Positions 38,964 to 61,500 of a stretch of DNA of 64,000 nt are shown here, piece by piece. The position numbers and the translations under genes are program-made. Position 1 is the stretch's first letter, and each line of letters opens with the position of its first letter. This DNA comes from Psammoneis japonica. Taxonomy: Eukaryota. The stretch spans positions 682,001 through 746,000 of the forward strand of contig QPGO01000011.1 of assembly GCA_008632985.1 (NCBI GenBank), given 5' to 3'. The notes under the pieces were generated by a model, which saw only the letters and a list, made by a program, of their open reading frames with translations, had not been told where the DNA came from and did no database searches.

Positions 38964-39102
38964 GGTTGCTGCTGCAGTCCGGCGAAATGTGTGAGAGGTG
39001 AGAGCACAACACACTTACGACGCCATCTTTGAGGTCAGCATCTATCAGTCTATCAGTTACAGTGACCTTACTGTAGACTATGCGTTGCTTTAAAATAGAA
39101 GA

Positions 39103-42100
39103 TTAAGGAAGCCTATGTAGAGCGGAAGGTAACAGCAGAGGGAGGCACGGAGGTAGCTGTAGGGACGGTAGAGTAAAAGGGTCGAAGGACGCAAGACGAA
39201 GGGCGTTTTGTGGAAGGTATGGGTGAGGAGGGGGCAGGGAGAGAGGAGGTGAATCGGAGGATGTGCGTAGAAAGGTGAAGAACAACGTTGTAGCCAAGAG
39301 TTTGGGTGGCCCACTGGGATGGGGTGGCTGTACGGTAGGTGCTTCCAAAGCGATCGGCGGACAGGCGACGCCATGCGGAGTCAGCAGAGGGAAGATTGCA
39401 GACGGAGACGATAAAGCGTAGAGGAAGGCGGAGTAGGAGGCATCGGAGTGACGAAGGTCAGAGGAAGAGGACCAGGGTGGCTTGGGCTGAGAGCAGACGG
39501 AGGGGGATGTAGAACCAAAGAGCAAGCGGTGGGCAAAGTAGCCGAGACCACCAAGGTGATCTACAGTGAAGGGGAGCAGGAAGATGCCATTGTTGTCAAG
39601 CGAAGAAACAACAAGGGATCCATCGGTGGAGGAAGTAGAGGGGCCAAGAAACTTCAATCTCGCGCTCGAGTGGTGTGCCTCAGTTAAGATAGGAGAAGAG
39701 GGGGCAGGCAGACCTGGAGGAGGGCGAGAGGAAGCTTGAGGGACGGTGACGTCCACTGCAATGTAGTGATGGCGGGAGGGAGCGGAAAGGGAGGCGGGAG
39801 GGGGATGAAATGCCGACATCGGCGGGACGGAGGAGCGGGCGGGTGGGGAGCAGGTTGGTGGGTTCAAGATGAACGTCATTGGGGGGATCGACAGAACTCT
39901 GCAAGAGGACCCAAAGTTTGGGCTAGGATGAAAAAGTGTCACGGAGACCATTGGAAAGCTTGGACTTGTGAGCACGGCGGCAAGAAAAGGCATGATCACC
40001 ACAGGCATCCAGAATGGCATGGCCACAGGGACAGGGAGTGTTGACAAGGGACGGAGGAAGGATGGGGAGACGAAGCTTACGAAGGGCGGCAACAGCGCAG
40101 GCGTCCGAAGAAAGGCGGGAGCTTGGAAAGCGACGAGAGAAGGAATGAAGAGGGAGGCTTGCAAGCGGAGATGGCAATGAAGGGAGCGAAGATTGCACGT
40201 CGTAAGATGAGTTAGCAAGGATGGAGGTCACTGCTTGTTGCTGATGTTCATGGTAGAGACGACGGGCCAGGCCGGGGAGGGTGGCCGATTTAACCAGGGC
40301 AGCCAGGGAAGAAGAGGAAAGGGCAGAGGCGGAAGCCAGAACGGGAGCACAACGGCGGAAGAGCGCACAGAGTCGTAGGGAAGAGCGAGGGTTGGACCAG
40401 GAAGACAGGGAGAGCCGAAAGCAGCGCGGAAGGGAAACAGAAGCGCCAGATGGCAGGCTGACACCGTGCGAAGCAAAGCGGAACGAGCGGAGAAGCGACA
40501 CCAAGAAGGAAGGAATGGCGGCAGCTGTTGGGGCCCGGAGACCAAACCCGCCCAAGGAGGCAGGAAGGAAAGCGATGGCAATAGAATGGTCGGGAAAAGG
40601 AGCGGCGAAGGAAGTGACGTAGTGTAGAAAGCGGTGAGCAACGGTGAGGAGGAAGTCTTGAAATGGAGAGGTCCAGAGAAAGGGGTCGGGAGGATTGTCG
40701 GGGTCGAAGTTGCAGCAGAAGTCAGCTCCAAGGAGGTGAGCAGAGGATGGAACAAAACAGTGCTTGAAGAGTTGAGCCTGGGTTTGTTCATCATGGAGAC
40801 GGGTGAGAAGCATGTCAACTTTGTCGGAGAGAGTGGAGGAAGTGTTGGAAAGGAAGGAGGTGGCGAAGTCGTGGGAGCCGAGGGGCTGTCCAAGGAAGCG
40901 AACACCAGAGGTGAGTTCGGGGTTGTAAGAGGGGTCATTGGTGGGGTTTAAGAAGGAAAGTGCAGCACGGAGAGAATCGGCGCGGGAAGGGGGAAGAGCA
41001 GGGATGGGGCTAACACCGGCAATGGAGGTGAGGATCTTGGTTTTACGGAGGTTGAGGGAGATTCCGCAGGGGGCACCGAGGGCGGAGAAGCGTTCAAGGA
41101 ACCATGGGAGTACGGAATGGGGAAGGAAAGCGTGAGCATCGTCAATGTAGGAGCCAACTGAGACAGAGGAACGGCCAGGGATACGTTCTTGAAGCTCTTG
41201 GTTAATCGGACGAAGAACCAGAGAGAGGACCAGGCTGGCGAAGACAGGGCCGAGAGGGCATCCTTGGGCAAATCCCTCTTCTTGAAGAAAGGAGCCCCAG
41301 GAAGAATCGGGTCGGCGATGCCAACATGTGTTGGAACTTTGACACAGAAGGTCAAAAAAAGGAAGCAGAGGATGGAAGGCAGGGGTGGAGGTGAGAACGT
41401 GTCGACAGGCATCTCGGGATGCTTCGTTGAACATGTTGACGAGGTCAAGAAGAAGAAGAGCCTTGGCAGAGTCGGCAGAAGAAAGATGTCGTTCAATGTT
41501 GGCAAGAGCAGAGTGAATGAGATAATCGAGGCCACCTTTGACACCAATGCCAAATTGGCCATCTGGGAGGAGGCATTCGGTAAATGCAGAACCAAAGAGA
41601 GTCATGACGACGGAGCCGGCAATGCGACGAAGAGCAGTGCCGACGCCAATGGGGCGAAGCTTGTTGAGGTCGCTGGCATCTTTATGCAGAGCGACAAAGC
41701 AGTTCGAAGCAAATAAGGAATGGACGGAGGAAGGAATGGAGCCATGGAGTAGAAGAAGGACAAGCTCACGAAAGGATGACAAGCAGGGGCGTTGAGCAAC
41801 ACCTGTTGGGGTTTTGGTAGAATGGAGGGCGTGGGACTTGAAAAGGTCGGTAGAATCAGCAAAGACACCGGCAGCAGTCCCAGGCTTACATTTGGAGAGA
41901 GCGGAAAGAAGAGCATTGGAGGAGAGCTCAACAGGCTCATTATGAAGGGAGGAGGCCGAGCGAGTTGAAGGAGGAATGGGCAGGTCGGAGGGGTGCAGGC
42001 GAGGAGGGTAGAGCTTGAGGATGGCAGGAAGGCGCTCAGGAGTGACGGCAGCAACAGGAAGCGCAGAGGTGAGCTTGGAGCAGGCCGAGTGAAAGTTGTC

Positions 42101-42841
42101 TTCGTCGGCGCAGACTTGAGCGGAGCAGCAACAGGTGGAAACAGAAAAGTCGGGGGAAGATGAGGAGAGGCGCGGCGCATGGGAGTGGGCTTTGTGGCAG
42201 AGTTGGCCAATGCAGCCACGGCGGAAGAGGGACAAGCGGGAGGCAATGGCAGGGCCAAACTTGGAGCGTGGCGGGACAGGAGCAAGAATGAGAGCTTCAA
42301 AGAGTAAGAGCAGCTTCCAGAAGGGAGCAGAGTCGCGTTGCCACGTAGGAATGAGGTGGGAGGGGTCAGAAAGGGGCTGGGAGGCGGCCAGTGCCCAGCT
42401 TGTCACATGATGAAGAGCAGAGTAGAGTTCCTTACGGGCGGAGGACGAGAGCTTGCGGCGGCAGGAAACTCGGAAAGGTGGAGGCTCGAGTGCAAGAGCA
42501 TGGAGCCATTGTAGCGAGGGGCCCCAGTCACCTAGATTGTGGAAGGACGAGAGAACAATGTCAGTGTTGAGGGAAGAGCGAGGAGCGAAGTGCTTGTTCT
42601 GCAAGTGATTGCGAAGGTGGGTGGTAGACAGGCAGGTGTGTTGGCTGTGATTGCAATGCCTGCAGACATGCAAACCAGCGGTGTCAAAGAAGGACGCAGG
42701 TGCATGAGAAAGCGAGAGGCGGGGATGCTCCTGGCGAAGATGGCTGCGCATAGAAGCAGGAAGGGATGATGCATCAATGGAAGGAGGGGACCAGGAGCAG
42801 AAGGGGCAAGTTGGCGGGGCACGGGCTTCGGTGGGTTCCAC
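39103..42841 (-). pseudogene. Retrotransposon ORF2: two C2H2 fingers, reverse transcriptase and restriction-like endonuclease
   Basis: 972-aa frame 42841-39923, continued after frameshifts (~39930, ~39800) into RPADV...YIAVDVTV...PFTVDHLGGLG. Only 8 Tyr in 972 aa by my count. Confidence 0.85.
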
Positions 42842-44491
42842 GAGGCGATGAGATCGCGGAGGGAGTCGACATCAGGGGCTGCAGCCCGGATGGCTTCTTC
42901 GTAGAAAGGTTGCCAGGTAGAAAGGCGGGCCGGGCAGCAAGTGCCTGCGAAGGCATCAAGGACATCCAAGAGTTCCATCTCGCGCTGGGACTGCTGGGGA
43001 GAAACCGAGTCATCAGATTCGGTCTGCATGGTTGCATCGGGAGCGGTGGGGGGCGGAGAGGTCTGCAAAACTACGGTGGGAATGGCAGGGGGCGGAGAGA
43101 GAGTGTCGGGAGAAGAGTGGGGACGTTTGGAGGGAGGAGGCTCGGTGGTGAGGGAGCGGGCTTGGGGAGGATGGGAGGAAGGAGATGCAGCAGTGGGGAG
43201 CAGATCTTGGGGCTTGGGGAGCTGCCAGTCTTGAGCAAGCAGCTCAAGGGCACGACACGAGAAAGAATCTCGAGAGGGAGCGGGCGGCTGAAGAGCAGCA
43301 GAGGCGCAGGATGGGGAAGTCATGCTGTCGTCATGGGCAGATTCCACCACAGAGGTGAGGAGATCCAAGGGAAAGCCGGGACAGTCATGTGGGTTGGCAT
43401 CCATGAGAGCAATTGTGCACGGAGACGGGAAAAAGAGCAGCTTGCACTTGATTGGGAGGGAGTCATGGGCAGAGAAGATGGGGATGAGGGAGCGAAGATT
43501 GGTTGCAGCAAGGAGACGACTGATGCCAGGTTGGGTGAGAGGAAGGAGAAGACGGTCAGAGACAACCACTTTCATGTTGCTCTGACGCGAAATGAGCTCG
43601 GAGAGGGCGTTGTAGGTGGAAGCAAAGTTGGCCGGGGCTGGGAAGGGAATGATGGCAGTGGAGGTCCCCCAGGATGGAGAAGGAGGCAGGTGGCGCATTG
43701 GATGGATTGGTGACATGAAGCAGGGTGTTCCAGACGGCATCGGAGGCAGTGGAAATGTAAAAAACCGGAAGAGAGCGGCGTCGCGCCTGGGCCGAGTTAG
43801 CGGGGCATTGCGAAGGACGAATTCCAACGAGATTGAGAAAGGTGGGACAGTCTCGGAAGGATTGAAGGATGGGATTGGTCATAGTGCTGGAGATCTTGCC
43901 AACAAGGAAGGAATAAAGGCGGGATAGAAGAAACTCAGAAGTGCGTCGAGAAGAACCGCAGAGGGTTGGAGAGGGGCCAGCAAGGATGCCATGAGCCTTT
44001 TCTTCGAAAGAGTTGCAGGCCGGGATCACAAAGGTGCAGTGCCGAGCCCAAGGATTGTCCACAGCCGAAACCGGAGAGAAGTCAGGGTGGAGAAAATTGG
44101 AAGGGGAGCCAGCGGAGCGGAAGGGGGTGAAGTGCGACGTGGGGTGCAGGTGCCATTTCTGAAGGAGAAAAGAGAGCGCTTGGCTGCGGAAGGATTCGAA
44201 GGAAAAGGTGGTGCCGTCGGGGGTCACCGGGTGAAGAGCAACGTGAAAGCAGGACGCCCACTGATTCTGGTGAGGATGGGAGCGCTTCTTGGTTTCAGCA
44301 AGCGTGACAGAGCCAAGAGTGAGGAGGAGCGGAGAGACACACCGGCTGTGATGCTCCAGCGTCTTAAGAATGATGTCACGAATGACATCAGACGTGAGAG
44401 CAACAGCAGGCACGTCAGGCAGGTCAGTAGGATGAAGGACCTGAGCTAAAAGCTTAACATCAGCAGGAGGAGCGGAGGCGAGAGTAGACAT
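42532..44491 (-). pseudogene. Retrotransposon ORF1, function unknown
   Basis: ATG at 44491 (MSTLASAPPADV). Frame switch at the G-run ~43668. Pro-rich tail overlaps the start of ORF2. Confidence 0.6.
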
Positions 44492-44599
44492 GATCAAGCG
44501 AGAAGAGAAAGTTGCAGAGAGTCGTTGTTGTGTGCGGATCGCCAAAAACAGCGACAAGGTCACAGAGCGTGTAGAAAGATAGGAGGAGGGAAGGTGAAG

Positions 44600-45130
44600 G
44601 CATGACGTGGGCAATCGTACACGAATGATCGTAGGGGGTGCATAGAAACATAGGGAGGAAGGCACAAGCAGAAGCGCGAAGGGAGTCATGGAAGAGAAAG
44701 GGGCAGTAGAGAGGGCCGAAGGGTAGGGGAAGCTGTAGAGGAGTACGGAAGCAATCGTGTTCGAAGGGGCGTAGAAAGGCATGTGGAACGATAGGAGAGG
44801 AGTCATAACTAAAGGCGCGAAGGGAGTCATGGGAGGAAGGGGGGCAATTGAAGGGGTTGCTGGAGGAGGAAATGGGGAAGAGGTCAGGGGGCAGAGAGGG
44901 GCCATAGGGAAAAGAAACGAACAAGGCAGAGAAGGAGAGAGGGCATAAGGAAGAGCAGAAAGGGAAATGGCAGGGGGCAGTTGTTGGGATGAAGGAAGGG
45001 AGTGAGGAAAAATGAAAGGGCAATGGAATGAGCAGTTGGAAGGGCAATTGGCAATCGTGGAAACTGGGGGCCAGTAGAAGGGGCGTAGAAATGTACAGGC
45101 GAAAGGAGCGAAGGGAGTGACCGAAAGGGA
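44600..45130 (-). repeat. Degenerate ~140-bp tandem subrepeats in the element 5' UTR
   Basis: gcaatcgt at 44611, 44751 and 45051. gcgaagggagt at ~44676, ~44817 and ~45108. ggggcgtagaaa at ~44766 and ~45080. Confidence 0.65.
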
Positions 45131-45899
45131 ATGAAGAAAGGAGACGATGGCAAAGGCAAGAACGGTAGGGAAAAGGATCCGCAAAAAGAAGGATGGCCAT
45201 GGCGGAGGGTCGGGAGGCCACTTCGGGAGGTGTAGCAAAGAGCTACTGCATCCATCATGGGACGCCATCGTCATACGAATTACCATGTTGTTGCTTTGTG
45301 TGTTTTTCTTTTTGTTTCTACGTCGCTTTATATATATATGAATATGTTTCGTTTGATTCAAAAAGTGCGGCCGCCAGACGATTCACTCACCCCAACATTC
45401 AATAACATATGTTCACGTAGGAAAATCAATGCAATTCCAAAAAAGTAGTGGAACGACGAACGACGACACGGAACTAAGAGCTCCCTGCCTGTGATGAGTG
45501 ACGTTCAACCTCAACAAATGGCTTTCATGGCACAATGCAACACTCACAAGAGAGCCCAATCAAGAAGATGGAGCCTGTGATGGGCATGTGCTCGTGTGGG
45601 GATCTGATGCCGCTGCAGCCCTGCACTCCAGTGAAATCCTCTCATGCTCGCAGAACACAGAATGTGGCGAGAGACAAACAAAGAATGCAGGTGAAAGTAA
45701 TCTCACCTTCCTGGGGGGGAAGCCAATTTGAAAAAGGGCAGAGAAGACACCTGCATGCTTCCTAAAAGCAGCAGTGCAAAGGGCCAGGAATTTGTCTGTC
45801 TCTTGATGACTTTTTTTTTGTCTCCACACCTGGCTTTTGCACCAAACTTTTGGGTCCTTTTTGCAAGGTGCGTGATTTCATTTTTCAACTCTGTGGCTT

Positions 45900-48800
45900 G
45901 TTTGTTCAAACCCAACTGGACCATGCAAAGACTTTCCACTTGCTTTTTTTAAGTGAAGCCTTGCTCTCATTTTTGTTGTGGTTGGAGCCATCAGAGCCAC
46001 GACTTGCTCTTTGAAGAAGAACCGTGTCAATGCCATGTGCTTGTGCTTCCACAATGTTTGACTTCTGTGGTTCAGTGTGGGACAGGACAAATTCACCAAA
46101 GGAGCATCCAAAATGCTTGTCACAGACAAGGTTTCATCATTGCACAATGGCGAGTGGACTGTGCGTGTCCAAAACTCTCTCTTTTTGTGGGTGGTGCATC
46201 ATGTTCAAAAACATGATGGTGTTCTTCATGACACAGTGTGCTTGCACATCAACTTGTGTGTCATCTTGTGTGTCATGTGGTGCACTGTTGCTTGAGTTTG
46301 CTTTTTCACAGTCTGGGTGCTCTGCTCAACTTCTGGAACATGGCTTTTGGCATTCATGGACATCAACTCTGGGTCCACACCATTGGCAAGAACTTCTGCC
46401 AACATCACATCCTTGAACTCAGGATCACACTTCTTGACAAAATCAATCTTGAATGCAGTCGTGTTGTGCTGTCAGAGGATCATGTCCCATGCATTGCACA
46501 CATCATTGTGATTCTTCCTTGGACTTCAGTTTCACACTGGATCTGCGCTTGATTGTCTTGTCAGTTGCGTGCAAGAGCTCAACTCTGGACACTTCCGCAG
46601 CATCAAAATGCCAAGGGTCGTGCATTCTCTCTGCTTCTTGCACGTCTCAGGTGGCAATGCCACAATGTAATTCCTCTCATGGCAATGATGCACACACTTG
46701 GTCTTCCTTTTAGTGAATCCATTGGTGGGCCCCAAAGCAAATTCTGCCATCAATGGTCATGGTCTTCACTTGGTTTGATTGCAAAAACAGCTTGAAACCC
46801 TTTGCACTGTGCACTCCAGCCTCGCAGCACAGCCTGAGTCCTTCCTTGGCAGTGGCTGCCTCTCTCTCAGAGCAGCCCTCAGCACTTTGTTCCACTGTGG
46901 GAACCACCACTCCAGATGCATCTTTGTGCCACCTGGCATTCTTCTTCTTGTCCTTCTGCAGCATGCTCACATGTGGCTTGCTCTGTTGTGGTTCTCTGAC
47001 ACAGTCACAGAAGCTTGGGGAAAATGCACACAGTCTGATGTTGTTGGCCTTGAGCACCATGACCTCATTGCCAGTTTTCTCATCAAATGGTCAAAACTTG
47101 TCTGCCACTCAGTTGTCGCAGGTTTCGCAGTGCCTTTTCTTCACATCCTTTAGACTGAGGATGTTCACTGTGGCATTGCTCATTCCAAGCTTTGTGTCCC
47201 CCCATCCTGGCATCATGCAGTCTTCATCCAGGCAGGGCATCCACTCCTGCATTCTTTCTGGCTGCTTGTTGTGAACTGGCCTCCAGCTTGCTGCCCAATG
47301 CCAAGAAGCCCAGCCATTGTCAAGGATGATCTCATCAGCTCAATGTTCACTTTGGCTTGGTTCTCATGCTCACTTCTGGTCTCTCACTGGCCACTTGCAT
47401 CCTGTGCCATGCAGCACCTCTGCTTTGGCTTGAGCAGATTGATCTCTTAGATCTGGTGGTGTGTGCTGCTGACACTGACAATGTTCTTGCTGCCCACCAC
47501 CAGTGCATTGTCATTGTTGCTGCCTTGCACCTGTGCATGGCTCTGTCTCCCCCATTGCTGCTTGGTTTCCTTCCAGTGTTCTTGCACCAGTTGTCACACA
47601 CAACGCTCTGATTGTGGTTGCACTTTGAGGAGCCTTCTTTGCCACAGCAGTGACAAAACCACAGGTTTGCTCTTGTTGTTGGTCTTCTTCTGAGCATGGC
47701 TTTGGCCCTTTTGGCTCTTGCTCTTGTTGCTGTTCTTCTTGTTGGTGTTCTTTGGTTGAGTTTTCTGATGTTTGCATGGATCGTCATTCCTTGGATGGTT
47801 CAGTGGTGCACCCATTGCTGCATCCAAGGTCTTTGGACATGTGTCCTTTCCTGGACTGCAGTTTCTTACGAAGCTTTTCTTCAGGGTCTTGTGCAGGTGG
47901 TCATCACTGTTCTCCATGAACAGGTGCATTGTCCACTTCTCACAGGTGGTTTTCTGCAGTTCAGTCTGTTTTGACTGTTTTGGCATTCTTGTGCTCTTTG
48001 GCATTGGAGACAAATCCATCTGACATCCTGTTTCCCAGTGCTTCCTTCATTGAATCTTCTTGTTGGTTCTTGAACCTTGACAGGCACAATCATTGATCAA
48101 TTTGTTGTCTTGCTGTTTCACGTCCATGAGGTTCTTTGTTCACGCCCTTTGTGAGGGTGTGGAATGGATGTCAGCCTCCCATTGAGTCAAATGTGTGAGG
48201 GCCTGGATCAGAGTTTGAGAAATGATGGGATTGGGTCATCCTTGACCTTGTCACACTCAGGATTGCCTTGTGATCTCTGTTTCATCTGCTCGGCACTTGC
48301 TTGGCACACACAACAGTTGTCCAAGATCTTGGCAAATGTGGTGGTCTTGCTCTCTTCAAACTGCTTGAGCTTCTTGCATCAGTCACTTGGCTCCGTTCTC
48401 CCTGTGCAGTGTTCCCAACTGAGTGTGTTTGTGCTCTTTTTCTTTCAGCAGTTCCTGGCACCAGTTGGACTCAGTGTTCTTGAGCAAGTCCACTTTTGAA
48501 GCTTCCAAGGCAGGCACTTCTGATGCAAAGTCCTTGCACTTCATTTCCTTGATGGATCTTGCAGAATGCACTCCCTTCCTGCATTCCTTCAGTGCAAATC
48601 AGACGATCTTCTCCTTTGCTTTTTCAAACATTGCATTGCAAGAGTTGCTGCTCAGCAATGAAGGACAAAACTTCATCTCACAGCCTGAAAGTGTTTCTTG
48701 TCACTGGTCTTCTTGCTTTCAGACCTGCAGCTTCCACCGCCTTTGCCACCTTGACCTCCTTGGTCTCAATGGCTTGATCTGCCACTTTCTCTTCCACTCA
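45900..48800 (-). mobile_element. Degenerate Ty1/copia (CoDi-like) LTR retrotransposon relic: gag, protease, integrase
   Basis: Gag-like HLFMENSDDHLHKTLKKSFVRNCSPGKDTCPKTLDAA. Protease-like DEIILDNG at ~47320. GAG-pre-integrase-like EGCSEREAATAKEGLRLCCEAG. Integrase-like AKSHVPEVEQSTQTVKKQ (cf. EHVPEVERSIRTVKER). Confidence 0.7.
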
Positions 48801-48873
48801 CAGTGTGCAGGCATTCTCTTGACTCAATGAGGTGGTGGTCTTGCAATGGACAAGCACCAACTCAGTGCTCCTG

Positions 48874-49089
48874 ACTCTTTGGAGTGAATGTTGAACTGGC
48901 AACACAATGTTGCCAAAAGGGAACCCTGTGAGGTCTCCTGTTCTGCTCATTGCACACTTGCATTGGTGGTCTCTGGTGGCCATGGCATGCATGCCTGGGT
49001 GTCAAAGCAAACTCTGCAGCTGCTGTGATGTGAGCATCTCTTGACACCAATCAACAATTGTGCAAACCAAACAATTCACTCCAAAGAGT
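48874..49089. mobile_element. ~216-bp MITE-like element with terminal inverted repeats
   Basis: actctttggagtgaat (48874-48889) is the exact reverse complement of attcactccaaagagt (49074-49089). Imperfect pairing continues inward. Confidence 0.5.
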
Positions 49090-52000
49090 GAGAATGAAAC
49101 ACACACATTCAATTTGATGTGGACAGGATCATCAAACACAAAAAAACATTCTTCTGATCCACATCAGAGATCAAAGATCTCCTCTTCAATGCATCCAGGT
49201 CTCACAAGTGCCCTGGATCCCATTTCTCCAACAATTTGAGCAATGAAAAGGATGCATGTTGTCACCATGTTTCTTCCCCTGAAGCTTTGTCACATGGTGA
49301 AAAATGCACAGAGCAGGTTGTTGGTGATGGATTGCTTGTGAGCACACTGTGCCACATGCAGCCAGCTGAATGAGAGGATGTGGCTGATGTGGATGCCACC
49401 ATGTGTGCTCCATCTGTGGAAGGTGGTCATTGTGCCCAAGCAGTCATGAGGAGCAGAAGCCAACAGCTCCAGCTTCAAAGTTGTGCAAGCTGCTTCTTTG
49501 CTTGTTGGGTCTGCCCCAAGGAAATGAAGAGGACCACAGCTGTGACAGCAATGGCAGGTGGCTGGCCAGATGGCGCAGCAAGATTGAATGATTTTGGCAA
49601 ATTAAGAATCCAAACTCTGGGTTGCTTTTGGTGGTTTTGACCACCACACCCTGGTTGCTTGAGGCAACATCTCAGATGATTTCATGCATTTGCTCTCATG
49701 CACATTGAGTTGACTGCCAAACCAAACCACACACCCTGTCACCATGTTAAAAGCTGCATGTTTGACATCACATGAAATTGCAACTTGAGCTTGTTGCGTC
49801 CAATGCAATGCTGAACAAATGAACAAAAACACTGCTTCTCCCACTGTGGGACTTGGCCATTTGTGCATCAGTGGCCACATGGTCAATCAAGTTGAGAGCA
49901 TTGTCACACAACAATGAGATGGTGGTCAACACAACAGTCCTGCTGGATTTGTTGTCACTGTTGACTGTCATGCAGCATTGTTCAGACATGCCAACAAGCA
50001 GCATGCTTGCTGACTTTTTTGCAGTGCTCTCATGACTGTGACATGCCCAAGTCTGCAGCCATTCAGTTCATTTCTGCTGTGGATGACATGAACAGTGCAC
50101 CCAATGAACATGTGCATGTTGTGTTGCATCATGGTCTTTGTTTGGTGACAGGTGCAGAAAGTGGGATTTAGCTGAGATGGCGAGTGTCAATGCCTTCAAA
50201 TCTGACACTTTTTTTGGTGTCAAGCTGGTCTTTGTTGTCACTCCTCAAACTCATTGCTTTAGAAGCCTCGCGTCTCATGCTTTTTCCATCAACCATCCCA
50301 ACAGCTCTTTTGGTGGCATCCTCTCTGCATGTTGAAACTTCTTGTGCTCATGACACCTTGTTCTCTCTTGTGCCCCACAGTGCTGCAACTGCAGTTTGGA
50401 TGTGTGATGCAGCATGTGCAATGTGCTTTGTTGTGAGATGGTGCATGAAACTACCAAACAATGCAACAGATTGAAGAGAGGAACCATCAGAGAATGACAA
50501 GCTTGTCAAGCTTGTTCCAAATCCATGCTCTGATGGTTTGTCATGGCTGTCCTTGCTTGTGTCTGTGCATTGTGTGGACAGAAACTAAATTTGTCATCAA
50601 TCATCAATGGACATGCTGCCAACTGGCCATCTGCCCTGACTGATCTTTTCAATCAGCACAAGGCAAGGAGGGCAACAGCATTGAAATTTGAAATGATGTC
50701 CCTTGCTGCTGTCATCATGTTCATCCTGTGTGATGATGGTGACACTGGCAGTGCTTCAGTGCATGGCAATGAGTTGGAGTTCAATGCTGGTCTCCATGGC
50801 TGCTGTTTGATGCCACTCCAAACATTGCTGCACAGATGACAAAGCTTGTTCTTGCAGCTGTCTGTGGTGACAGGAAATTTCTGGACTGCATTGTGTGTGC
50901 ACCAGCAGCTCTCTGCAGGGATCAATGCTCTGGATGTTGTCACTGCAGCAACAAGAGCAGCTTTGCCAAAGAGTGTGCAACAAAACAGTGTGGACCAGAA
51001 CTGCATCTTAGGAGCTGCACATGCCATGACCTCAAAAAGTCAAGAAATGTCACAACAACAAGGTCTCCAACCCTGTCATGCCAAGAAAAGAGTCATGCCA
51101 GCATCTGCTCTTGACCACCAGAACACCTGGTCTAGTTTTCCCATCACTGCAGTTAAATGGCCCAGCTGTTAAAACAAGATGCAGCAACCAAGAAAGACAA
51201 GGTGCCACCCACAATGAGCACAGCCATCACCTCAACCAACAGGATGACAAAAACACTCGCAAGAGCCCCCTTGCTGTTTTGAAGCATGCCCTGCAAGCAC
51301 TGGCCACATTCAAGAGAGGTTTGAGATGCCCATGAGCAGGGTTGAACTTGCAAGTGCCCATGTCCTTTGTAAACTGGCTCTAGAGAGTTGTGATTCTTTG
51401 CCCTTGCCCCCAAAAAAGGTGGCATGCAAGCCTGGCTTCCGACCCAGGCAGTGACCACCCAGCTCATTTGCTTTGCAGTCACACTGTGCCAGCATTGCAT
51501 GCATCATGGAGAAGTCAAAAAGATGCCAATGAACAATTGAGACAAGCACGGCTGCATTGTCTGCCAAAGAAGTTGACCACAATGCATTGTTCCCACTCCC
51601 AGGCCCTGGAAAAGATGTTCCAGGCTCTCAGCTGTTCACTCAATGCCGGCGAGCATTGCCAACAATTTTAAACAAGAAAAAGAAGGCACTCAGAAGGCAG
51701 CATGCAGATGCCATTGAGTGCCACCAATTGACTGTTGAGAGCTTGTCTTCACATTGACCAGTGGGATGTCCAAAGTTGGCATGAGCAGCAAACTCCATTC
51801 CAGCCAAGGCCATCCTTGCACTGGCAGAAAAGACTGGTGGGCACTTGATGCACTCCAGCTCTGGGTGGGACCTCTCACCTCTCACTGCTGCACTGTGATG
51901 TGAGTGTTTTTTAGATCATGCAGCATGTTGCACATGTGCATTCTGCATGCTCCTGTCTTCCATGAATTGTTTCATGCTCCATGTTTTGCAAAGAGCGAGG

Positions 52001-52729
52001 GGCTTTGTGTTTTCTCCATTTGTGAGAGCAAAAATTGCCTGGCTGCATTCTTCAATGTCAACAGAGTGCAAGCTAAAAATTAAGTGCTTTTTAAGTGTGG
52101 AGGAGGAGATGCATTCACAAAATTGCCTCTTTTTCTGATGGTGATCATTCGTGCATTCATCACCTGACAATTTTGCGACAGAAACAGCGCAAATGTTGTG
52201 CACGGACGAGCCCCACCCAGGGCTGGAATGTGTCACTTCTTGAGTTGTTCCACAGCACATTGGGAGGGACAGAAATGCACAAATGGTGCATCTTGGCTTG
52301 TTTGTTGTTGAAATGAGGGTGGGGAGAAGCAAAGGTGATGAGTTGCTTCTTCTTGCGTGACTTTCGTGCCAATCTGACAGTGCTCAACAATGCCGTTGCA
52401 CTGGAATGTTCTTCAGTCATCACAGAAGGGATGGGCAGGTTGGCATTGGTAAATGAAGAGGTTCAAGGTCAGCGCCGGCTCCATTGATGGGACCGAGTTG
52501 TCGACAGAACAACAAAGTGGGGTGTGTGATGCTGTGAAACAACTTTTTTCAGAAATGCGCAGATCGTGCGGCGGCGCAACAATTCCACTTTGTTTTACCT
52601 TTTCTTTCTACAGGAAAAAAATGGTGTTGTTAGAAGAATCAACCTCCCGGCATTCATTGTACAAGTGACGCCACCATTGTTCAGGACTTTTTTTCTTTCA
52701 TTCGTATTTGCTGGACACTGACTGACATA

Positions 52730-54308
52730 ATGTGGAACCAGCACATCCCTGGCATCTCCAACTCCGACTTGGCAGCCGGGTTAGCTCCCATGGCCGGTGC
52801 CTTCCGTCCCAAAGCTGATGATGAAGCATATTCATACGACCGGGAGCGTGTGAATGATCACGCCAAAGAGAAGCTATTATTTGATGCTATAGAAAACGGT
52901 AGGAAAGATGAGTTGCGCAGATTAATCAGTGAAGGAGTGAACATTCATGCTAGTGATTACGACGGGGACGGGGTGCTCCATCGGGCCAGCGAAAGGGGGC
53001 GTTTGGACATTGTCGAGTTGTTGGTTGAAAATGGAGCAAAAGTCCGTGCCAGCGGTGAACACGGGAACACGCCCCTTCATGATGCTGCGATCTATGGACA
53101 TGCCGATATTGTCCAATTCCTTGTGGAAAACAAAGCAGACATTAATGCTGCTAACGATTGGGGCTGGACGCCGCTTCACTATGCCAGCTTCAGATACCCC
53201 AATGTTGTCTCGTTGTTGCTTGATTCAGGTGCTGACATTTTTACACAGAACAAGCACGGCTATACGCCTTTGGAGACGGCACACAACAAAAATAGACCTG
53301 ACATTGTAGAGCTCCTTGAGACCGCTGCTCGAGAAAGAGGTGAGTAAGGTATGCTGACTTGTCTCATCATACAAGGAACGCATTGGCTCACCGACACTGC
53401 TCTTGACAAAATCTTCAACCTTTGTTTTAGGAGATCACGAAAGTCTATACCAAGTGAAAGAAAGATTGAATGCAGCCGAAGAAGAAAAGCAACAAAAACT
53501 ACTTGACGAGGAAGAGAAGCGCATTCAAGAAGGTTTGTGTCCAAAATGCGGCAAAGCAAAGACTCACCGAGTCGGCTTTTTTTTCAGGACACGGCTTACA
53601 ATTGAGGGTCAATCACGTAATGGAGAGTGCCTGCTTTGTGATCCCAGTGACCCTAGTAGGTGGGCTATTTCGTACAACCAGCTCATGATATTCCACAAGG
53701 AAGCATCGGAAACATTTGGAACCGACTATCCAAACAAAACTATGCACCATGTCGTCCAAGAAATGATTGCGCCAAAGTGTGTCAAAAAGGGCAAGTCCTA
53801 CGCATTACAGTGCAATCCTCAAGGATTGAAACTCGACGTGTTTGTGACACATGCTTGGGATGAGCCGTTTGAACAGTTTGTTGAGTCGATCAAGCAAGAG
53901 TACGGGAGCAACTTGCGCCCACCGAATCTGTGGATATGTTCCTTTGCTTTAAGACAAGGTGACAGCCAGAGTATTGCTGAAGAGCTTGATGGAGATTTGC
54001 TTGAGTCCCCATTCGTCAAGGCGATGAAGGAGGCAACGTCATACTTGGTTGTTCGTAACCACGAAACCGACGTTTTTACCCGAATCTGGTGTGTCTGCGA
54101 GGTCATGTTTGGGCGAAAGTTTGGCCTTATCCCAGAAAAGGCTAGTGCAAGAGGTCCCAAGGCACAGTCCACATCAAAAATTACCTGCTTGGATGCACAA
54201 GCCACAAACCCCGAAGACAGGGACAAGATTGTACTAACACTTCTGAATGAGCACAAGAGGGAAGATATTGACACGTTCATTCATGAGTTGCGCATTCGTG
54301 GCTTGTAG
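52730..54308 (+). CDS. Ankyrin repeats plus zinc ribbon plus TIR/HET-like domain protein, 2 exons
   Basis: Four to five ankyrin repeats (GNTPLHDAA, GWTPLHYAS). In-phase intron 53340-53430. CPKCG...CLLC, DVFVTHAWDEPF, LWICSFAL, FTRIWCVCE. Confidence 0.8.
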
Positions 54309-54346
54309 TAGAACTGTTCAGCTACGAAGAGAAGAGCAGCATGGAA

Positions 54347-55420
54347 CTAATAGTCATTGTTTACGGAGAATACATACGCAGATCCCGATCTATCGCCATT
54401 GACATTAGCATGATCACCAACCCCAACAATGTTTCCGTCTGCCGTCAAGGACACAGAATATCCAAATTATCCGACGCAGCCTCGCTTTCACGAACCCCAA
54501 CACCTGAATCCATTGCATTGTACCGCTGTCGTATTCAAAGAATCTAATTTGACCTGCATTCTCTAATCCGTCTATTCAAGGACACCGACCAACAAAAAAA
54601 AAATCGATTGCTGTAGTGTTATGAGAGTCTGTCCACGCAGTGTCCACGTTGATGCTTTACGGTCATGGACATGCGCAGCGACTCTCTCGTCTTCTGGTGC
54701 GCCTATCGCCATGACCAAGCCGCTGTCATTGAAGGAGGCAGACCGCGTCCAAATTGACCCCCCTGCGTTTCGTCCTTTGATTGGGTCGTCGAGTGGATCC
54801 CACCTTGATGTCGCAGAGTTGCATTCGCATGCAGAGACTTGGCCAACATTTTCTCCACCCGCTTTGGCACCAATGCCAACAATCTTCCTCAATCGACTCA
54901 ACGAAACTGAAACGCCAAACTGATCAGAATCCTGGCCAATCAACCTCTAAGCTGCTCTCATGAATTGGTGCTGCAATTGGACTGAAACAACCAAACCGAA
55001 CCAGAAAAGCTGCCATTTTCCGTGTCATCCACAAATGCTCCAACGGAAAGAATGTTGCCTGATTCCAACAAAGAGATGGAACATCCAAAATGATCACCTG
55101 TTGATTCTCCAACAACACCTGTCCCAAGTTTGGCCCATCGATTTGTCAAGGTGTCACACTCAAAAACACAAGAGAGAGCTTGACCCGTGACAGGTCCTCC
55201 GTTGCCATTGCCTCACACTCCAACCACTGGAATGGTGCCATCACCATTCATTGACACAGAATGGCCAATGTCATCTCTGTTCTCTGGTCCCACCAAGTCT
55301 TCAACCAATTTTGTCCAAGATTGGGTGGCTTGAATGATTTGACAATTGGGGGCAAAACCATGTGGTTGCCTTGAGGTGCTCCCACCGCTGCAGCGCTTCC
55401 ATCTCAAGACAAGGAGACTG
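54347..55420 (-). pseudogene. FG-GAP/integrin-alpha-like beta-propeller gene, decayed
   Basis: Repeats IGHSVSMNGDG, DHFGCSISL...LSVGA, DQFGVSVSL...VGIGA, MAIGAP and GYSVSLTADGNIVGVG. Frameshifts are present. Stop codon at 54347-54349. Confidence 0.75.
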
Positions 55421-58400
55421 ACAAGCCAAACACATCCCAAGCACCATTTCTGTTGCAGACTTGTCCAAGGAGTTGGTGCCATGAAGAAGGAACAGCAGTC
55501 AGTTTGGTTGGTGAGTCCACATGAAGCAGAGCAGACTTTGGAGAAGTTGAGCTCTCTGTTGTCAGAGACAGTGTGGATGGTGGTGTTGCGGGCTTTTGTG
55601 TTGGTGAGTGTCTGTCTTGGTTGATGTTGGAGTTGGCAATGGAGATGGTGTTGCAACCAACACTCACACCCACCAAGTCAACAAATGTGCTGCTTTCTTC
55701 AACCTCACCCAACACCTTCAGGTTGGCATGATGCAGGCCAATCTCCCAGTTGAAGTTTGTGGCAGAAAGGTTCTGTTGCCAAGGTTTCTGTTGACATGTC
55801 CTTGCCCTCACACTCATGCATGAAGCCCTGCGCCATTGTCTTTTTCTTGCACAACATTGACTGTGTCACTTCCAATGTGTTGGCAACCCCGCTCCTGCTC
55901 TTGGAGCAATTGGCCCTCTCCACCAGGGTGAGCCAAAAAGGCACCACCAACATCAATGTAACTTGATGTTTTTCTTCAATTGCCTGTTTTTCCTCTTTTT
56001 TGTTGCCATCTTTGCTTGCTGCCCCAGCAACTCATTCTCTTTCTCTCTCTTCTTTGCTTCTGTGATGAGCACACTTGCTGCACATTGCATTGCCTGGTGC
56101 TTTGTTGGAAGTGTTCATCCATGGCAGCTGACCTTGCTTTGGAAAATTTGCTCTGCAGCAGAAATTGCACAGAAGCTTGCTCAGCCAGAGAGCAAGAAGC
56201 CCAAGTTGACATCTTTGATGCAGGCATTGATGAGGGTTCTCATCTGCACAAATGTTGTCAAAAAGTTCTCAACGTTTGTCGGGCCAAGCTCTTTTGGTGG
56301 TTTTGGTGGTTTGCTTGTCAACTCCTTCATCATCTTGCCTCAACAACATTGACTTTGAAGGAAACTTTTATGGACAATGGTGTTTTTTTGCACCATGTCT
56401 TGCAGCTGCTCTTTTCAAAGAAAGATGCCCATGCTCTGCACACATTTTCAATCTCAAACTTAGAGCACCGCATGGGATGTTACCCATGATCACTGGTTTT
56501 GGTGCTGTTGTTGATGTCCAGATGACACACGCAGCACATTGATCACAAAAAAGCAAGAGATGTTGTGCACAGCGGGGGGTTGTGCCATGCTGCAGCTGAA
56601 AAGGAGGTGGGCTTGGCAAAGAGGACATGGCTGTGGTGTGTGCTTGCTGGTGAGATCCCTCACTTTCATTGGGATTGTCAGAGAGCAAAACACAAAAGAG
56701 CAGCACCACACACATGCCCCACAGTGTTCTTTTTTCACTGGGTTTGAGTGGTCAGGGTGTGCAACAAGCATCTGGCAGCCACTGCACGGCATTGCACATG
56801 ACTCCAGCACTGCTGGCTCAGTTGACAGCTGTGAAGGAGGCACTGATGTCCTGTGCACAATGCCTGTGCACCTGTGTCAGCCTGGGCTCCATGGACAGTG
56901 GAGACAGATGTTGGGTGGTTGACAGAGGGGTGACAGGCATGCCCAGCTCTGCATGTTTTATGTCAGGGCAGCCAGCCAGATGGCAAAAAAGGTGAGACTC
57001 AAACAAGAAGCTGAGCAGGCTGGCATTCACTTGCTCTTGAGCACCCAGATGTTCAAACACATTGGCAGCTGAGGTGGGATCTAGAGCAACCTCAGATGAC
57101 CCAAAATGGCTTTCTCTGCTCAGTGGGGGGCTCCCCTCCCTGATCTGTGTTTGCAGGGTTGTTGTTGAGTGGATGGCTGGCCAGGCTCAACACAATTGCC
57201 TGACTTCAGCAAATTAAGAACCACCTGCTGGTTGCTTGAGGCTTGCACACTTTTGCCATGTGGCATGTGCAGAAAGCTGTGCTTTGTCATGCTTCATGAC
57301 ACAATGCTTTGAAGCTGTGCTCAGTGCAGTGCTTGGAACAAAAAAAAAACATCTCCTGCATGTTGCTGGTTGTCTGTTGTTTGTAAGTTGATGGCTGCAG
57401 CTTTGATCAAGACAAGAGTTTTGTCACACCATCACAGCAGCAGAAAGACAGTGCTTGCTTTGATGAATGTGCTGGATTTCTTGGTGCCATTGACTGTCAT
57501 GCCACACTTGGACACATGCCAACAAGCAGCATGTCTGCCAACTTCTGCAGGGCTCTCAGGACTGTTGTGCAAGCAAGTTTGCAGTCATCACTGGGTTTGT
57601 CTCTGCTGCAGATGCAGTTTTCTGTTGGCATCTGTGGAGTGTGTGTGCGTGGGTGGTGTCATTTTTGTTTCTGCCACCCCAGTTTCTCACAACAGATGCA
57701 GAAAATGACACTTTGATTTCCATCATCAACAGCACGCCATGTGTGGTGCCTGCAGCAAGAAGTCATGGAATTTTTTTCCAAAATGAGAAGAAGAACAAAA
57801 AGAGCAAACTTGTGCAGAAGCTGGATGCTGCAAACAGCTGTCTTTGGCAGTTTTGACATCTTGAAAGCAGCTGTGACTCTCCCACTTAGGCCTTGGCAGC
57901 TGTGTCCATGGATGGTGCCATGTGCGGATGAGGTTTGGTTGCACTTGGTGCTTCTCTCATGATGCTCCTGTCTCTTCTTGTGTTTGGAACATTTTTTCCT
58001 TCTTCATTGTCAAAGCAAGAGCTGCAGTGCCAAAACACCTCATTTTTTCCCCACAGCATCAATGCAGCTTGGCTGCATGGTGCAGCATGTGTGGTGCCCT
58101 TTGTCACAGAACAGCATGTGAAACCCAACAGTGCAACAGACAGGAGCTCCAAGCCAGCAGCACCAATGATTGGATCTAGAATTGGCTTGTCAAGCTCATT
58201 CCAAATCCATGCTGAAATGGGCCAAAGTGGCTGTCCTTCCTTGTGTGTGTGCAATGCCTGCACCGGAGCCAATTTTGCCTCCAGTGGTGCTCCAGCTCTG
58301 GCCAGCCACCCCATCAGCAAAGGTGATGGTGTGCGCATTGCGCATCATGCAACATGGCTGGCTTCTTCAGCAGGAGAAACAGTTGATGGCATGGGATGCA

Positions 58401-61400
58401 GCAATTTGTTTGGCGCACTTTTGCAGCTGCCAACATGCTCGTCCAGCTCCAGGTGAGATCTTGCACTGCTGATCTGTGATGTCAACAGTTTTTGGATCAC
58501 TCTGTGCATTGTGCACGTGCATTTCTGCATGACTTTGAAGGAATTTTGATCATGTCATTCCCATGGAGCAGTTGCTGTTCTTGGGAAATTTGCAATGATC
58601 TGCTCAGCAACTTTTGACATTTTTTTCTTCTGCACCACTCTCAAATGTCTTGGATGGCATGTGCGCCACAAACTTGGTTGCTCAGTCAAACGTTGAAGAA
58701 AAATGTTTCCATCAAACAGAGCACAAACCACAGAGCTTGTTGTGCACAGAAATCTGCAGGCAAATGTCACACATGGAGTCTTGCCCAGGGCTGGAGCATG
58801 CCCACCCCACTGATGCCGGTCTTTGTTGAAGCTTGACAGAGTGGGCAGCAGTGTTGCTCATCTAAGATCAGCAACAGCCCACACAAAAACCCAAGCAGTT
58901 GTCCTGGCAGCCTTCTGGCTGGTGCCACACTGCAACCACATTGCCCACATTGGATGAGCTGGCTGAGCCAAACAAGATGTGACTGCAGGTGCTCCATGTT
59001 GCTGAAGATGGGGCAGCTGGCAAGTGAGCAATGCTTGTTGCATGCTGAGCAGCATGGTTGGGTCTGAGCTTTGCCAGGTGATGACCTGATCTTGCAGATG
59101 GCTGCCTTGCAAATTCTGCACAGCAGCTCTTGAGCTTCATTGTCTGCTGGAGGTTCACAGCAGATGTGTTGTTTGCTGGTGTTGCCACAGTTTCTTCCTT
59201 GGCATCAACAGTGGGTGCAGGGATGATGTCTTGGCTGGAGTCTCATCAGATGGCATGAAGTCAGTCTTGTTGAGCAGCATGATGCCAACTGGTGGCTTTC
59301 ATGGTGACAGGCATGGGGTGCACACAAAAGGCATTGTTGGGGGCACTTTGGGGCTTTTTGTTGCAACCCAGGGCTCTCAGATTTTCTTTTGTTGCCAAAG
59401 TGAGGGTCTCTGCAGTCTTCTTCATTTTGCAAAGGTGCTCTTTGTTCAAATGTTTGCACAGGAACTTGCTGCATCATGATGCGCTGATGATGAAGATGCG
59501 TCAAGAGCATCTGAGCTGTCAAAAGCAGTGCCCACATCTTGGATGACAACCTTGAGCTGGAGAAAGCCTTGGAGCTCTGCATGGCAGGTGAGAACATCAG
59601 GTTGCTCTGTTTTGTGCAGCTCTTGGTTGTCTCAAAGGGGCACTTGTGTTGCGTGGGGTGGCAATGAATGTTTTCATCTTCAGGGCAGTGCAGCACCCAC
59701 TTCCAGATTGCTGGTGGATGATGGTGGTGCCTGAAAACTTGGAGGTTGGTGGCAAGATGCCCTTGTCTTGCAATGTTGGCAGACCCTGATTTGGGCTGAG
59801 CTGGAAGAGCATGCAGAGAGGCAGTTTGTCAGTTTTGGCATTGCCTGCAGCAAATCCCCAGTCTTTGTTGTCTTTTGCAAAGAGCTGCAGTGGATGAGTG
59901 CATGCTCAGTGAGCCATGGCAACTTCTTCACAGTGAGCATGATGCATCACCAAGCATGGGCGCTCTGAGGCAAGGTGTCATCACAGATGATCAAGTGGCA
60001 CAGAAAGACCTTGGCTTCCCATCACTTGATGACATTGACACATGCAGGGTGTCATCTGTGAGGATGGCACATTTGCTGCCATTGGCACAGTTCACGTGGC
60101 CATTGCAGGGCACAAGGTCACTCAAGAGAATGGCAAGTTCTTTGTGCTTGTGCAAAGTGGTTCTTAAAATGTGACAGCTTGGCAACACACAGGAAGCCAG
60201 GGTTGATGTTGTTTTTCCTGCCTGCTTGGAGGCTTCAACAACCTGTTGCCTGTCAAAAAAGATGCAGCGTGCAGCCCAAACTCTGGCAAGGGAGCTTGGG
60301 GATGGTTGTGCACTTTTCTCAGCCACAGCTCATGCACTGCTCTTACAATCTTTGACAGCTCTTTGATTGGCACAGAGCTCTTTCTTTTTGCAGCTTCTGA
60401 GGCTCATGTTGCCAGCAGAAGAGACTGCAAATTTTTTGCTCAGCCATGTTGGTGGTTGGAGCATTGCTGCACTTGGCAACATCATTTCACACCTGGCTTT
60501 TTTGGCACATGCCAGCCCTGTGGCAAAATTGTGACTGACTGCATTGACAAAAGATCAAGCAAGCCAGCCAAGAAAAAGGATGGTTGCAAAAGATGTGCTC
60601 CTCTTGGGCGCAGCTTGCAACCAGATTGGCACTGCTCATGATTGCTGCATCTGCAGTCTGCCAAGTTTCTGCAGCATGGCAGGCCTCTGAAGAGAACACA
60701 TTTGAAAGCACCAAGCAAGCCACACTGTGTGCTGGTGGTGAGAAAGTGAACAAGATGCATCATGGAAAATTTTAAAGAGCATGTGCTGGTTTTGGATGAC
60801 TGTGTCGCTGCATTTGACACACTGTCAGTCGTTGCCATGTTGTTGGCTGATGGTGCCCAAGCTCTGGTTAATTTGGCCCGCCAAGGTCTCCTGCTTTTAG
60901 CTTGTTTTGCTGTGGTCTCATTGCAAGCACACATGAATTGGGAGTGTGTTTTTGCAACTCCCTTTTCACAATGTTCTCTCTGCCATTAAAAAGAGATGAG
61001 TGCACTTGTTGAGGCTTGTTGAGAGGGTCTTTTCTGCCATTCCATCTCAAGCCAATGTCCCTGATGACTGGCCTGCAGACCCAACACTGTCGCTGTCTCT
61101 GAAGAGCAGCAATGATGCAAGTTCCCTGTGGAAGGAATGGAGGTGTTGCATCTGACACCACTGTTGTGGATGATGGCAGTGGGAGTGTGGGTCTAGCTGA
61201 GGCTCTGTCCAAGCCTCTTGGTGGAGCTGCAGTGCTGAAGGCTGTGATTCCCACCACATGAGCATTGAGACATCAAGCCATTCTTTGGAGCATTTGGTGG
61301 GCTTTTGAACTCTGTCATCTGTTGACCTGCTGTTGTTCAACAGAATGCACAGAAAAATCAAATCTGGCAGGCTTTGGAACTCTTTTGTCTGTTGACTTGC

Positions 61401-61500
61401 CACAGAAAAATCAAATGAGATGACATGGGACACAGTTCTGTTGTGACAATTATGACTCGATTCAATCTCTGCCACTGTCATGTTCTGAAACATGCTGCAC
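54900..61500. other. Hypermutated block 2 (unassigned decayed repeats or genes)
   Basis: Same TpA/CpG depletion as block 1, with about 20 TAs in ~6.6 kb by my count, mostly YTAR. Confidence 0.88.

Follow-up and report, generated by a model that had tools for sequence, protein, structure and literature searches.

What has removed nearly every TpA dinucleotide from two sharply bounded blocks of DNA, while the sequence around them kept an ordinary composition? The question is raised by a stretch of 64,000 nt of contig QPGO01000011.1 (hereafter the window, to whose positions all coordinates refer), in which a first-pass annotation had noticed two such blocks and had ascribed them to a candidate genome-defence system, a repeat-associated A:T->G:C hypermutation at TpA. 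Our analysis showed that CpG depletion, which that annotation did not mention, is as strong as the TpA depletion in the same blocks. The explanation which we favour, with a probability of roughly 0.6, is a strand-reading deamination of adenine in 5'-TAY-3' (Y, pyrimidine; R, purine) within silenced DNA, of the kind reported in a preprint on the alga Bigelowiella natans (Mettrop et al. 2026, 10.64898/2026.01.13.699255), accompanied by decay of CpG carrying 5-methylcytosine (5mC).

Composition of the two blocks and its read support

Expected TA and CG counts were derived from the observed/expected ratios (O/E) of the flanks (0.56 for TA), and O/E was followed in sliding 1-kb windows. The two domains are the following.

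45476-52450, block 1, TA- and CG-depleted domain: TA O/E ~0.05, CG O/E ~0.12, TG/CA O/E 1.8-1.9
54948-61450, block 2, TA- and CG-depleted domain: 19 TA and 40 CG in 6.5 kb

In the 1-kb profile TA O/E falls to 0.00-0.13 inside 45501-52500 and to 0.00-0.09 inside 55001-61500, and lies at 0.4-0.8 over most of the window outside the blocks. Block 1 contains 25 TA against ~264 expected (Poisson P 5e-80) and block 2 contains 19 against ~237 (P 2e-75), so the near-absence of TA announced by the first-pass annotation is borne out, together with its TA-free runs, which we located as gaps of 1736 bp (47867-49603) and 718 bp (45950-46668). Its range, which began at 39092, stands for the blocks but not for 39103-45382, where a separate element resembling a long interspersed nuclear element (LINE) is poor in TpA only and has near-normal CpG.

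The loss of CpG is of the same order: 47 CpG against ~391 expected in block 1 and 40 against ~382 in block 2, which over both blocks amounts to ~89% of CG lost beside ~91% of TA. The excess of TG and CA that had been seen at first pass is confirmed, O/E being 1.81 for TG and 1.97 for CA (range 1.8-2.0) versus 1.15 in the flanks, and at the 250-bp scale both dinucleotides are elevated throughout the blocks. The G+C content (0.46-0.51) is unchanged, because CpG loss removes G:C pairs while TpA loss removes A:T pairs. When all TA and CG of a flank were converted at random to TG or CA in a simulation, CA reached 1.97 (1.97 in the blocks) and TG 1.90 (1.81 in the blocks), and the remaining dinucleotides came within ~0.1 of the block values, except GC (1.31 vs 1.10).

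The letters themselves were checked against X1 and X2, two runs of one public sample, in the form of Logan contigs assembled from 31-letter words. X1 contigs lying on the blocks are 0.3-6.5 kb long, have a word depth of 54-69 and show 0-5 differing letters each; their depth over the blocks equals that over the flanks, and elsewhere X1 contigs reach 315 kb. A single contig of 6531 bp (depth 66.6, positions 52108-58637, 2 differences) joins block 1, the intervening gene and block 2. Since exact-word contigs of such length and depth need accurate reads, long-read miscalling, a possibility which the first-pass annotation had asked to be checked with other reads, is very unlikely: accurate reads at ~60x reproduce the TA-poor sequence. 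One might still imagine that modified bases in heterochromatin (5mC, 6-methyladenine or others) had been miscalled by a long-read base caller, the more so as no record exists of the sequencing platforms used for the assembly and the runs. We consider such an artefact very improbable, since noisy long reads could not produce contigs that extend to 6.5 kb across the blocks with 0-5 differences and a word depth of ~60-67; moreover, the amino-acid pattern and the TAY rule presented below would be odd for a base caller. In polymerase-based reads, modified bases are not converted to other letters.

Altogether 777 X1 contigs were matched to the window, and the differences listed comprise 208 transitions versus 82 transversions. 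These contigs also indicate that parts of the blocks have paralogues elsewhere and that much of block 2 occurs among them only once at 80% identity or above. The term "repeat-associated" of the first-pass annotation is consequently unproven, on account of these single-copy parts and of the entry of the mutated zone into an array of FG-GAP repeats (see below).

Direction and sequence context of the change

To read the direction of change, homologues with unaltered sequence are needed, and block 1 offers them through the remnant of a retrotransposon.

47489-48013, minus strand: Copia-type gag-like remnant (HMMER, alignment A1, tblastn)
46056-46429, minus strand: integrase-like remnant, colinear with gag and belonging to the same element (tblastn and reversion-tolerant scores)

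An HMMER search with the open reading frame (ORF) at 47594-48046 (minus strand) against 1.84 billion representatives yielded two proteins, P0002 and P0003, and from P0002 a 570-aa relative was reached (P0004), in which a CCHC knuckle and a DTG-type protease motif are recognisable by eye. Scanning of metagenome contigs with these three proteins revealed 13 related loci; at one of these loci, L003, the encoded polyprotein is 1755 aa long and includes a reverse transcriptase of the Copia type (RVT_2 5.9e-9). In tblastn the gag piece at 48013-47489 is matched by P0002 (E 5.6e-12), P0003 (2.6e-10), P0004 (3.3e-7) and the L003 polyprotein (3e-8), and the integrase-like piece at 46190-46056 by residues 796-840 of the latter (E 0.009). 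Under an ungapped scoring that tolerates reversion, in which TG or CA may be read back as TA or CG, gag scores 145 and two integrase segments 109 and 114, and the reversed query scores at most 78. On these similarities, the minus strand of block 1 holds a Copia-like element truncated at ~45476, where the LINE-like element starts.

The remnant is hardly visible to the usual tools. In 12 six-frame read-through translations of the blocks Pfam detected no transposon domain but only FG-GAP_2, and no open frame in the blocks exceeds ~200 aa. Motif searches of the blocks for YxDD, DSG, CCHC and HHCC gave nothing credible, a search for long terminal repeats by exact 32-mers in purine/pyrimidine space found none, and the purine-any base-pyrimidine (RNY) periodicity was too weak a signal for frame assignment. 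Elements rewritten in such a fashion escape Pfam, and their annotation needs a step that undoes the TpA and CpG changes, analogous to deRIP.

The direction of change is read from homologues and not from parents and offspring. In alignment A1, the five columns with tyrosine in both P0002 and P0003 have H, H, C, C and P in the window, and a sixth column (Tyr/Phe) has C. Over the three scoring segments compared with the L003 polyprotein, none of the 11 tyrosines is kept (H3, C3, F2, S, V, T) and none of the 13 arginines (K5, Q4, H, A, E, L). Four peptides had been cited at first pass for Cys or His in the place of Tyr: DTCPKT, RNCS and LHKT belong to the ORF 47594-48046 (minus strand), where the homologues have Tyr, and are good examples, while EGCSERE falls into the ORF 46710-47090 (minus strand), where homologue evidence is lacking.

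All 13 environmental relatives have an ordinary TpA content (O/E 0.67-0.82), and CpG O/E is 0.71-1.10 in 12 of them and 0.30 in one. Freedom from TA is therefore not a trait of the family, which settles at the family level whether the relatives share the composition of the blocks. The locus with low CpG (L009, a metagenome gag locus of 1084 bp) combines CpG O/E 0.30 with TpA 0.72, that is, a CpG-only pattern in another organism.

The two blocks also contain segments homologous to each other, which were found by transition-tolerant local alignment.

49743-50601, plus strand: segments of block 1 homologous to block 2
57266-58537, plus strand: counterpart segments of block 2

Three colinear pairs of weak similarity (49743-50085 with 57266-57614, 50348-50601 with 58030-58285, and 51854-51955 with 58442-58537) score 200, 172 and 84, versus ~40 for shuffles, and the homologues differ by 10-11% transversions. 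The columns occupied by pyrimidine-purine (YR) steps comprise 62 TG/TG, 47 CA/CA and 37 TG<->CA. The swaps thus make up 37 of ~150 YR columns (25%), while other double transitions occur in 28 of ~536 columns (5%), with 1-7 per kind, a rate equal to the square of the single-site transition rate. The 37 swaps therefore mean that ancestral TA or CG was converted independently in each copy and on either strand. With TG and CA both about doubled and swapping between copies, and Tyr replaced by His as well as by Cys, the first-pass statement that both strands were hit proved correct. Protein-level comparison of the homologous parts revealed no preferred frame, and although nine consecutive CA states at 49743-49884 of block 1 hint at short strand-coherent tracts, the runs tests were not significant.

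Short segments common to both blocks (51712-52312 and 58323-58923) have a very high summed depth of X1 contigs, the bin means being 9290 and 2368, with a peak of ~128,900 at 52138 contributed by 59 contigs. Loose-end consensus sequences beside other copies of this short repeat contain TA and CG, so the repeat also resides in DNA of normal composition elsewhere.

Could the composition be native, i.e., could foreign or selfish DNA have evolved to avoid TA and CG, for example in response to a host nuclease or methylase, and been inserted as such? We find this hardly credible. A working protein-coding element needs Tyr codons, and here His or Cys stands at conserved Tyr; the long open frames and Pfam transposon domains of such an element are missing from the 12 translations; all 13 relatives have normal TA; and the TG<->CA swaps between copies, together with the FG-GAP array that runs across a block border, speak for change in place. 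Taken together, the comparisons support the loss of TpA as a mutational process that acted on DNA in place, by A:T->G:C transitions on both strands.

The few surviving TA allowed us to define the context of this process. They were classed by the base 3' of A on each strand (44 in the blocks, 1616 in the flanks).

Class YY (RTAY): 0 in the blocks, 494 in the flanks
Class GY: 1 in the blocks, 451 in the flanks
Class AY: 10 in the blocks, 398 in the flanks
Class GG: 5 in the blocks, 80 in the flanks
Class AG: 15 in the blocks, 132 in the flanks
Class AA: 13 in the blocks, 61 in the flanks

TA followed by purine on both strands makes up 33 of the 44 survivors versus 273 of the 1616 flank TA (Fisher P 1.4e-16), and the 13 related loci have the same class baseline as the flanks (YY 31%). 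Scaled survival is ~0.7 for AA, ~0.37 for AG and ~0.2 for GG, which is roughly multiplicative and therefore fits an independent attack on the A of each strand, at a rate set by the 3' base in the order Y >> G > A; TAT sites have been lost no less thoroughly than TAC sites. The process thus targets 5'-TAY-3' on each strand separately. The products agree with this, since the ratio (YTGY+RCAR)/(YCAY+RTGR) is 1.45 in the blocks, where 1.11 is predicted for a random choice of strand and 1.42 for a TAY model; this ratio is supportive of the TAY model but not exclusive to it. CG survivors show a weak context effect only (TCGA lowest, GCGC highest). The TAY rule and the overshoot of the TA-depleted zone at two edges (see below) are new results of the present analysis, and the rule, which resembles the UAC context of TadA, offers a biochemical handle to guide the search for the enzyme.

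Block edges, neighbouring genes and the number of agents

If TA and CG were lost together in the same blocks, one can ask whether one agent or two have been at work, and the edges and neighbours of the blocks are informative in this respect.

52093-52449: right edge of block 1, TA 0 vs 13.4 expected (P 1.6e-6), CG 8 vs 19.8 expected
54705-54947: left edge of block 2, TA-free, CpG normal
52634-54308, plus strand: ankyrin-repeat gene between the blocks (Pfam Ank_2 2e-53), normal composition, GT-AG intron at ~53338-53428
54368-55439, minus strand: FG-GAP repeat array crossing the left border of block 2 (Pfam FG-GAP_2)
39103-45382, minus strand: LINE-like retroelement (RVT_1 3.5e-10), YIDD kept, C-terminal Cys/His motif

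The borders of TA and CG loss are sharp and mostly coincide within ~50 bp. At two edges, both facing the expressed ankyrin gene, the TA-free zone reaches further: on the left of block 2, positions 54705-54913 have 0 TA vs 6.6 expected (P 0.0014) and 13 CG vs 13.9 expected. A spliced X2 contig covers 52689-53337 and 53429-54366 of the ankyrin gene, i.e., a 1.6-kb transcript contig with a 91-bp intron taken out, and the product includes a 316-aa part without a Pfam family, joined by the intron. Because this contig skips the GT-AG intron 53338-53428, X2 contains transcripts; X2 leaves the inside of the blocks nearly without cover (a trace of 1.49 in one bin), and is not informative on silencing.

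The FG-GAP array extends through the border of block 2. FG-GAP_2 matches lie at 54368-54466 outside the block (E 6e-6) and at 54985-55104 (E 4e-7) and, weakly, 55371-55439 (E 0.047) inside it; since these repeats stand on both sides of the border on one strand, the sequence was evidently altered where it lay and not brought in as foreign DNA. Inspection of the units by eye shows FGYSVSL and SAYVF in the unmutated part and FGCSISL, IGHSVSM, SCVFE and SLS*DG in the mutated one, where a TGA also occupies a position that Arg would fit. A search for homologous proteins with the unmutated part, among longer proteins, gave no match.

The LINE-like element has 57% G+C and 0.8% Tyr, with 53 TA vs 114 expected (O/E ~0.26) and mildly low CpG (257 vs 333 expected). 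RTAY accounts for 2 of its 53 TA vs 494 of 1616 in the flanks (P 2e-6), as might suit a partial target of the TA process, but its class pattern is unlike the TAY model and there is a compositional skew between its strands. Its 5' part has an X1 depth of ~570, suggestive of about ten copies, and positions 44681-45286 are matched by an X2 contig. The element has long overlapping open frames in several phases; these are no proof of its intactness, because a pure TpA->TpG/CpA change destroys TAA and TAG and never creates an in-frame stop. A PDB search with its ORF returned 0 matches.

In the remaining part of the window, a gene for a UBR-box, PRT6-type N-recognin is located at 18682-26308 (plus strand; zf-UBR 2e-19, PRT6_C 2e-21) with an uninterrupted frame of 5.1 kb, and a Strawberry-notch gene at 449-4304; these two genes indicate an intron-poor genome. 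A weak taxonomic lead points to diatoms, as the nearest Protein Atlas cluster (score 0.88) is most frequent in Bacillariophyta. Mild TA depletion was also noted at 31000-32200 (O/E 0.09-0.38 in 200-bp windows, CpG O/E 0.47-0.95), and was judged ordinary; open frames overlap on both strands near this region (30881-31708, minus; 30996-31646, plus).

A single DNA deaminase of dual specificity, which attacks silenced DNA at the A of TA and at the C or 5mC of CG and so erases both self-complementary YpR steps, would account for the equal loss of TA (~91%) and CG (~89%) in the same blocks and for the coincidence of most borders within ~50 bp. A double activity of this sort, on A as well as on C of DNA, is attributed to the ADAT2 enzymes of amphioxus and Trypanosoma in the text of the B. 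natans preprint (10.64898/2026.01.13.699255). Nevertheless, we regard it as unlikely: the TA process has the sharp +1 context of TAY, while CG survivors show only a weak one; TA is gone at two edges where CG is normal or half lost; the LINE-like neighbour is TpA-poor with CpG near normal; and, in the data reported by the same preprint, the B. natans process spares G:C pairs. These differences in context, at the edges and in the neighbour suggest that the TA and CG processes are separable. A broader form of the one-agent idea is that a single chromatin-guided defence with a TadA/ADAT-like enzyme, directed at A in TAY and C in CG, is common to distant eukaryotes, namely a rhizarian alga and the protist of the window, intron-poor and possibly diatom-like, as an ancient counterpart of repeat-induced point mutation (RIP) that is neutral in G+C; we would call this quite unlikely.

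It may also be asked if an enzyme is needed at all. Late-replicating, repair-poor heterochromatin (for instance, with weak mismatch repair) might become enriched in CpG C>T and in T>C changes by passive bias. Each of these changes has a G:T or A:C mismatch as its intermediate, active genes adjoin the blocks as would be expected of heterochromatin islands, and the 10-11% transversions between the block homologues mean that the DNA is not young. Against such a bias stand the near-saturating removal, confined to TA and obeying a strict per-strand rule of a +1 pyrimidine, as well as the sharp borders and the protein homology that is still detectable. We know of no passive bias that combines near-saturating TA removal with a per-strand +1 pyrimidine rule. 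In addition, the B. natans process, according to the preprint (10.64898/2026.01.13.699255), runs at a rate 1000-fold above background and is switched on or off between lines. Passive bias is for these reasons a doubtful alternative.

We therefore return to TAY-specific adenine deamination combined with methyl-CpG decay. In this scheme, two kinds of transition, each specific to its own sequence context and with a common footprint, would have altered two silenced, chromatin-like domains in place. The first would convert A to G in 5'-T-A-Y-3', each strand being read separately, so that a hit on the top strand gives TG and a hit on the bottom strand CA; its agent is most likely a TadA/ADAT-type adenine deaminase acting on DNA. 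The second would be the ordinary decay of methylated cytosine, CpG->TpG/CpA. We infer two processes rather than one, as well as the class of the enzyme and the methylation. What was targeted looks more like a domain of chromatin than like repetitive sequence in itself. The enzymatic A:T->G:C process proposed at first pass is retained in so far as it acts at the DNA level, on both strands and on TpA (Tyr replaced by His or Cys, TG<->CA swaps, TAY); it had ignored the CpG half of the pattern.

Several points weigh against this scheme. The loss of CpG is as complete as that of TpA and the borders are common within ~50-350 bp, which also fits a single agent, and CpG was not touched by the B. natans process (a single one of 211 mutations was other than AT->GC, as far as the preprint reports them). 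Ancestral composition is approximated by the flanks and the related loci. Some of the surviving TA may be new mutations and not survivors, and in simulation a product ratio of 1.38 arises from nothing more than a strong preference of the CpG process for YCG. X1 is probably the sample behind the window assembly, so it confirms the letters and is not an independent biological replicate. Finally, signs of an ongoing process were sought as an enrichment of YR steps among the differences between the window and X1 contigs of the same locus, and only the chance level was found (5 of 10 transitions on YR steps, which hold ~49% of block bases).

Comparison with known systems

The first-pass annotation had called the process the reverse of RIP. 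The comparison is valid for the destruction of TpA, but CpG is lost equally by G:C->A:T changes and there is no net gain of G+C. Like RIP in ascomycetes and the TCG-biased hypermutation in basidiomycetes, the process consists of transitions only, is limited to regions, hits both strands and inactivates selfish DNA irreversibly; also like RIP, it spreads into neighbouring sequence and leaves elements lost to homology searches. Unlike it, TpA is destroyed and G+C is unchanged, while RIP, acting on duplicated DNA, changes C to T mostly at CpA, creates TpA and lowers G+C. The CpG half resembles 5mC-driven decay, with CpG->TpG/CpA on both strands, little flanking preference and confinement to silenced DNA; TpA, however, is also lost here, and 5mC decay cannot remove it. 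The exclusion of RIP or 5mC decay alone, as argued at first pass, is thus upheld by the near-absence of TpA at an unchanged G+C of 0.46-0.51.

Among the adenine deaminases, the ADAR type shares with our pattern the A-to-G change and the 5' U preference of its hyper-editing of double-stranded RNA. ADAR, a metazoan enzyme, prefers 3' G, while here the 3' preference is Y >> G > A, and both DNA strands as well as an FG-GAP array that is no retroelement are affected. Editing of an RNA intermediate, which the first-pass annotation had rejected, is also excluded by our data: TG and CA products occur together, they swap between copies, and the FG-GAP array has been hit. The tRNA adenosine deaminases TadA and ADAT2-3, with the DNA base editors derived from TadA, seem closer, because the U33-A34-C35 context of their substrate would match 5'-T-A-Y-3' and one strand is read at a time; for TadA and TadA*, a preference for UACG(A) is reported (PMC8052359). 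The natural enzymes act on tRNA loops, so the match concerns context only. A natural DNA adenine deaminase, if true, would be of interest for base editing.

The closest parallel is B. natans. The first-pass annotation knew of no description of such a process, a statement that is now outdated, since the preprint of Mettrop et al. (10.64898/2026.01.13.699255) reports TpA->TpG/CpA hypermutation in this alga; our literature search found no description besides it. According to the preprint, 231 of 302 nuclear mutations in mutation-accumulation lines fell into two integrated silent viral regions, and 230 of these 231 were A->G or T->C, all at TpA. The rate was ~6e-7 per site per generation, with only some lines active, an ADAT2 homologue is proposed as the agent, and the genome has 124 clusters of windows, poor in TpA and rich in CpA+TpG, in which reverse-transcriptase and DDE domains are over-represented.

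As far as the preprint describes its system, the likeness to the window is considerable: TpA becomes TpG by a hit on one strand and CpA by a hit on the other, within delimited, silent DNA of foreign or selfish nature, with normal composition outside; TpA is lost and CpA+TpG gained in the long term, reverse transcriptases or transposases are enriched there, and a deaminase-type mechanism is proposed. The degree of saturation differs (TA O/E 0.05 here vs a Rho of 0.45 given for the region of nucleocytoplasmic large DNA virus, NCLDV, origin in B. natans), and so do the targets: in the window a host-like repeat gene and what remains of a retrotransposon, in the alga, as reported, inserts of giant viruses and virophages. 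CpG, ~89% of which is lost here, is a term that occurs 0 times in the main text of the preprint; the +1 pyrimidine rule is likewise not stated in that main text, although its Fig. 2B and Table S2 may bear on it. The genomes are also of different build, with 49% GC and few introns in the window versus 45% GC, exons of 159 bp on average and 7.8 introns per gene reported for B. natans (PMC12730881), and the organisms are apparently unrelated.

TpA hypermutation has so far been described in one preprint on one alga, and the window would add a second, apparently unrelated organism, in which the process has gone to saturation. If the second organism is true, this would suggest that editing-type genome defence is widespread among protists, and the coupling with CpG loss raises the question of whether one silencing mark attracts both the methylation of cytosine and the editing of adenine. 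Relative to the B. natans system, the window contributes the TAY rule, independent hits on the two strands, the saturation and the co-localised loss of CpG.

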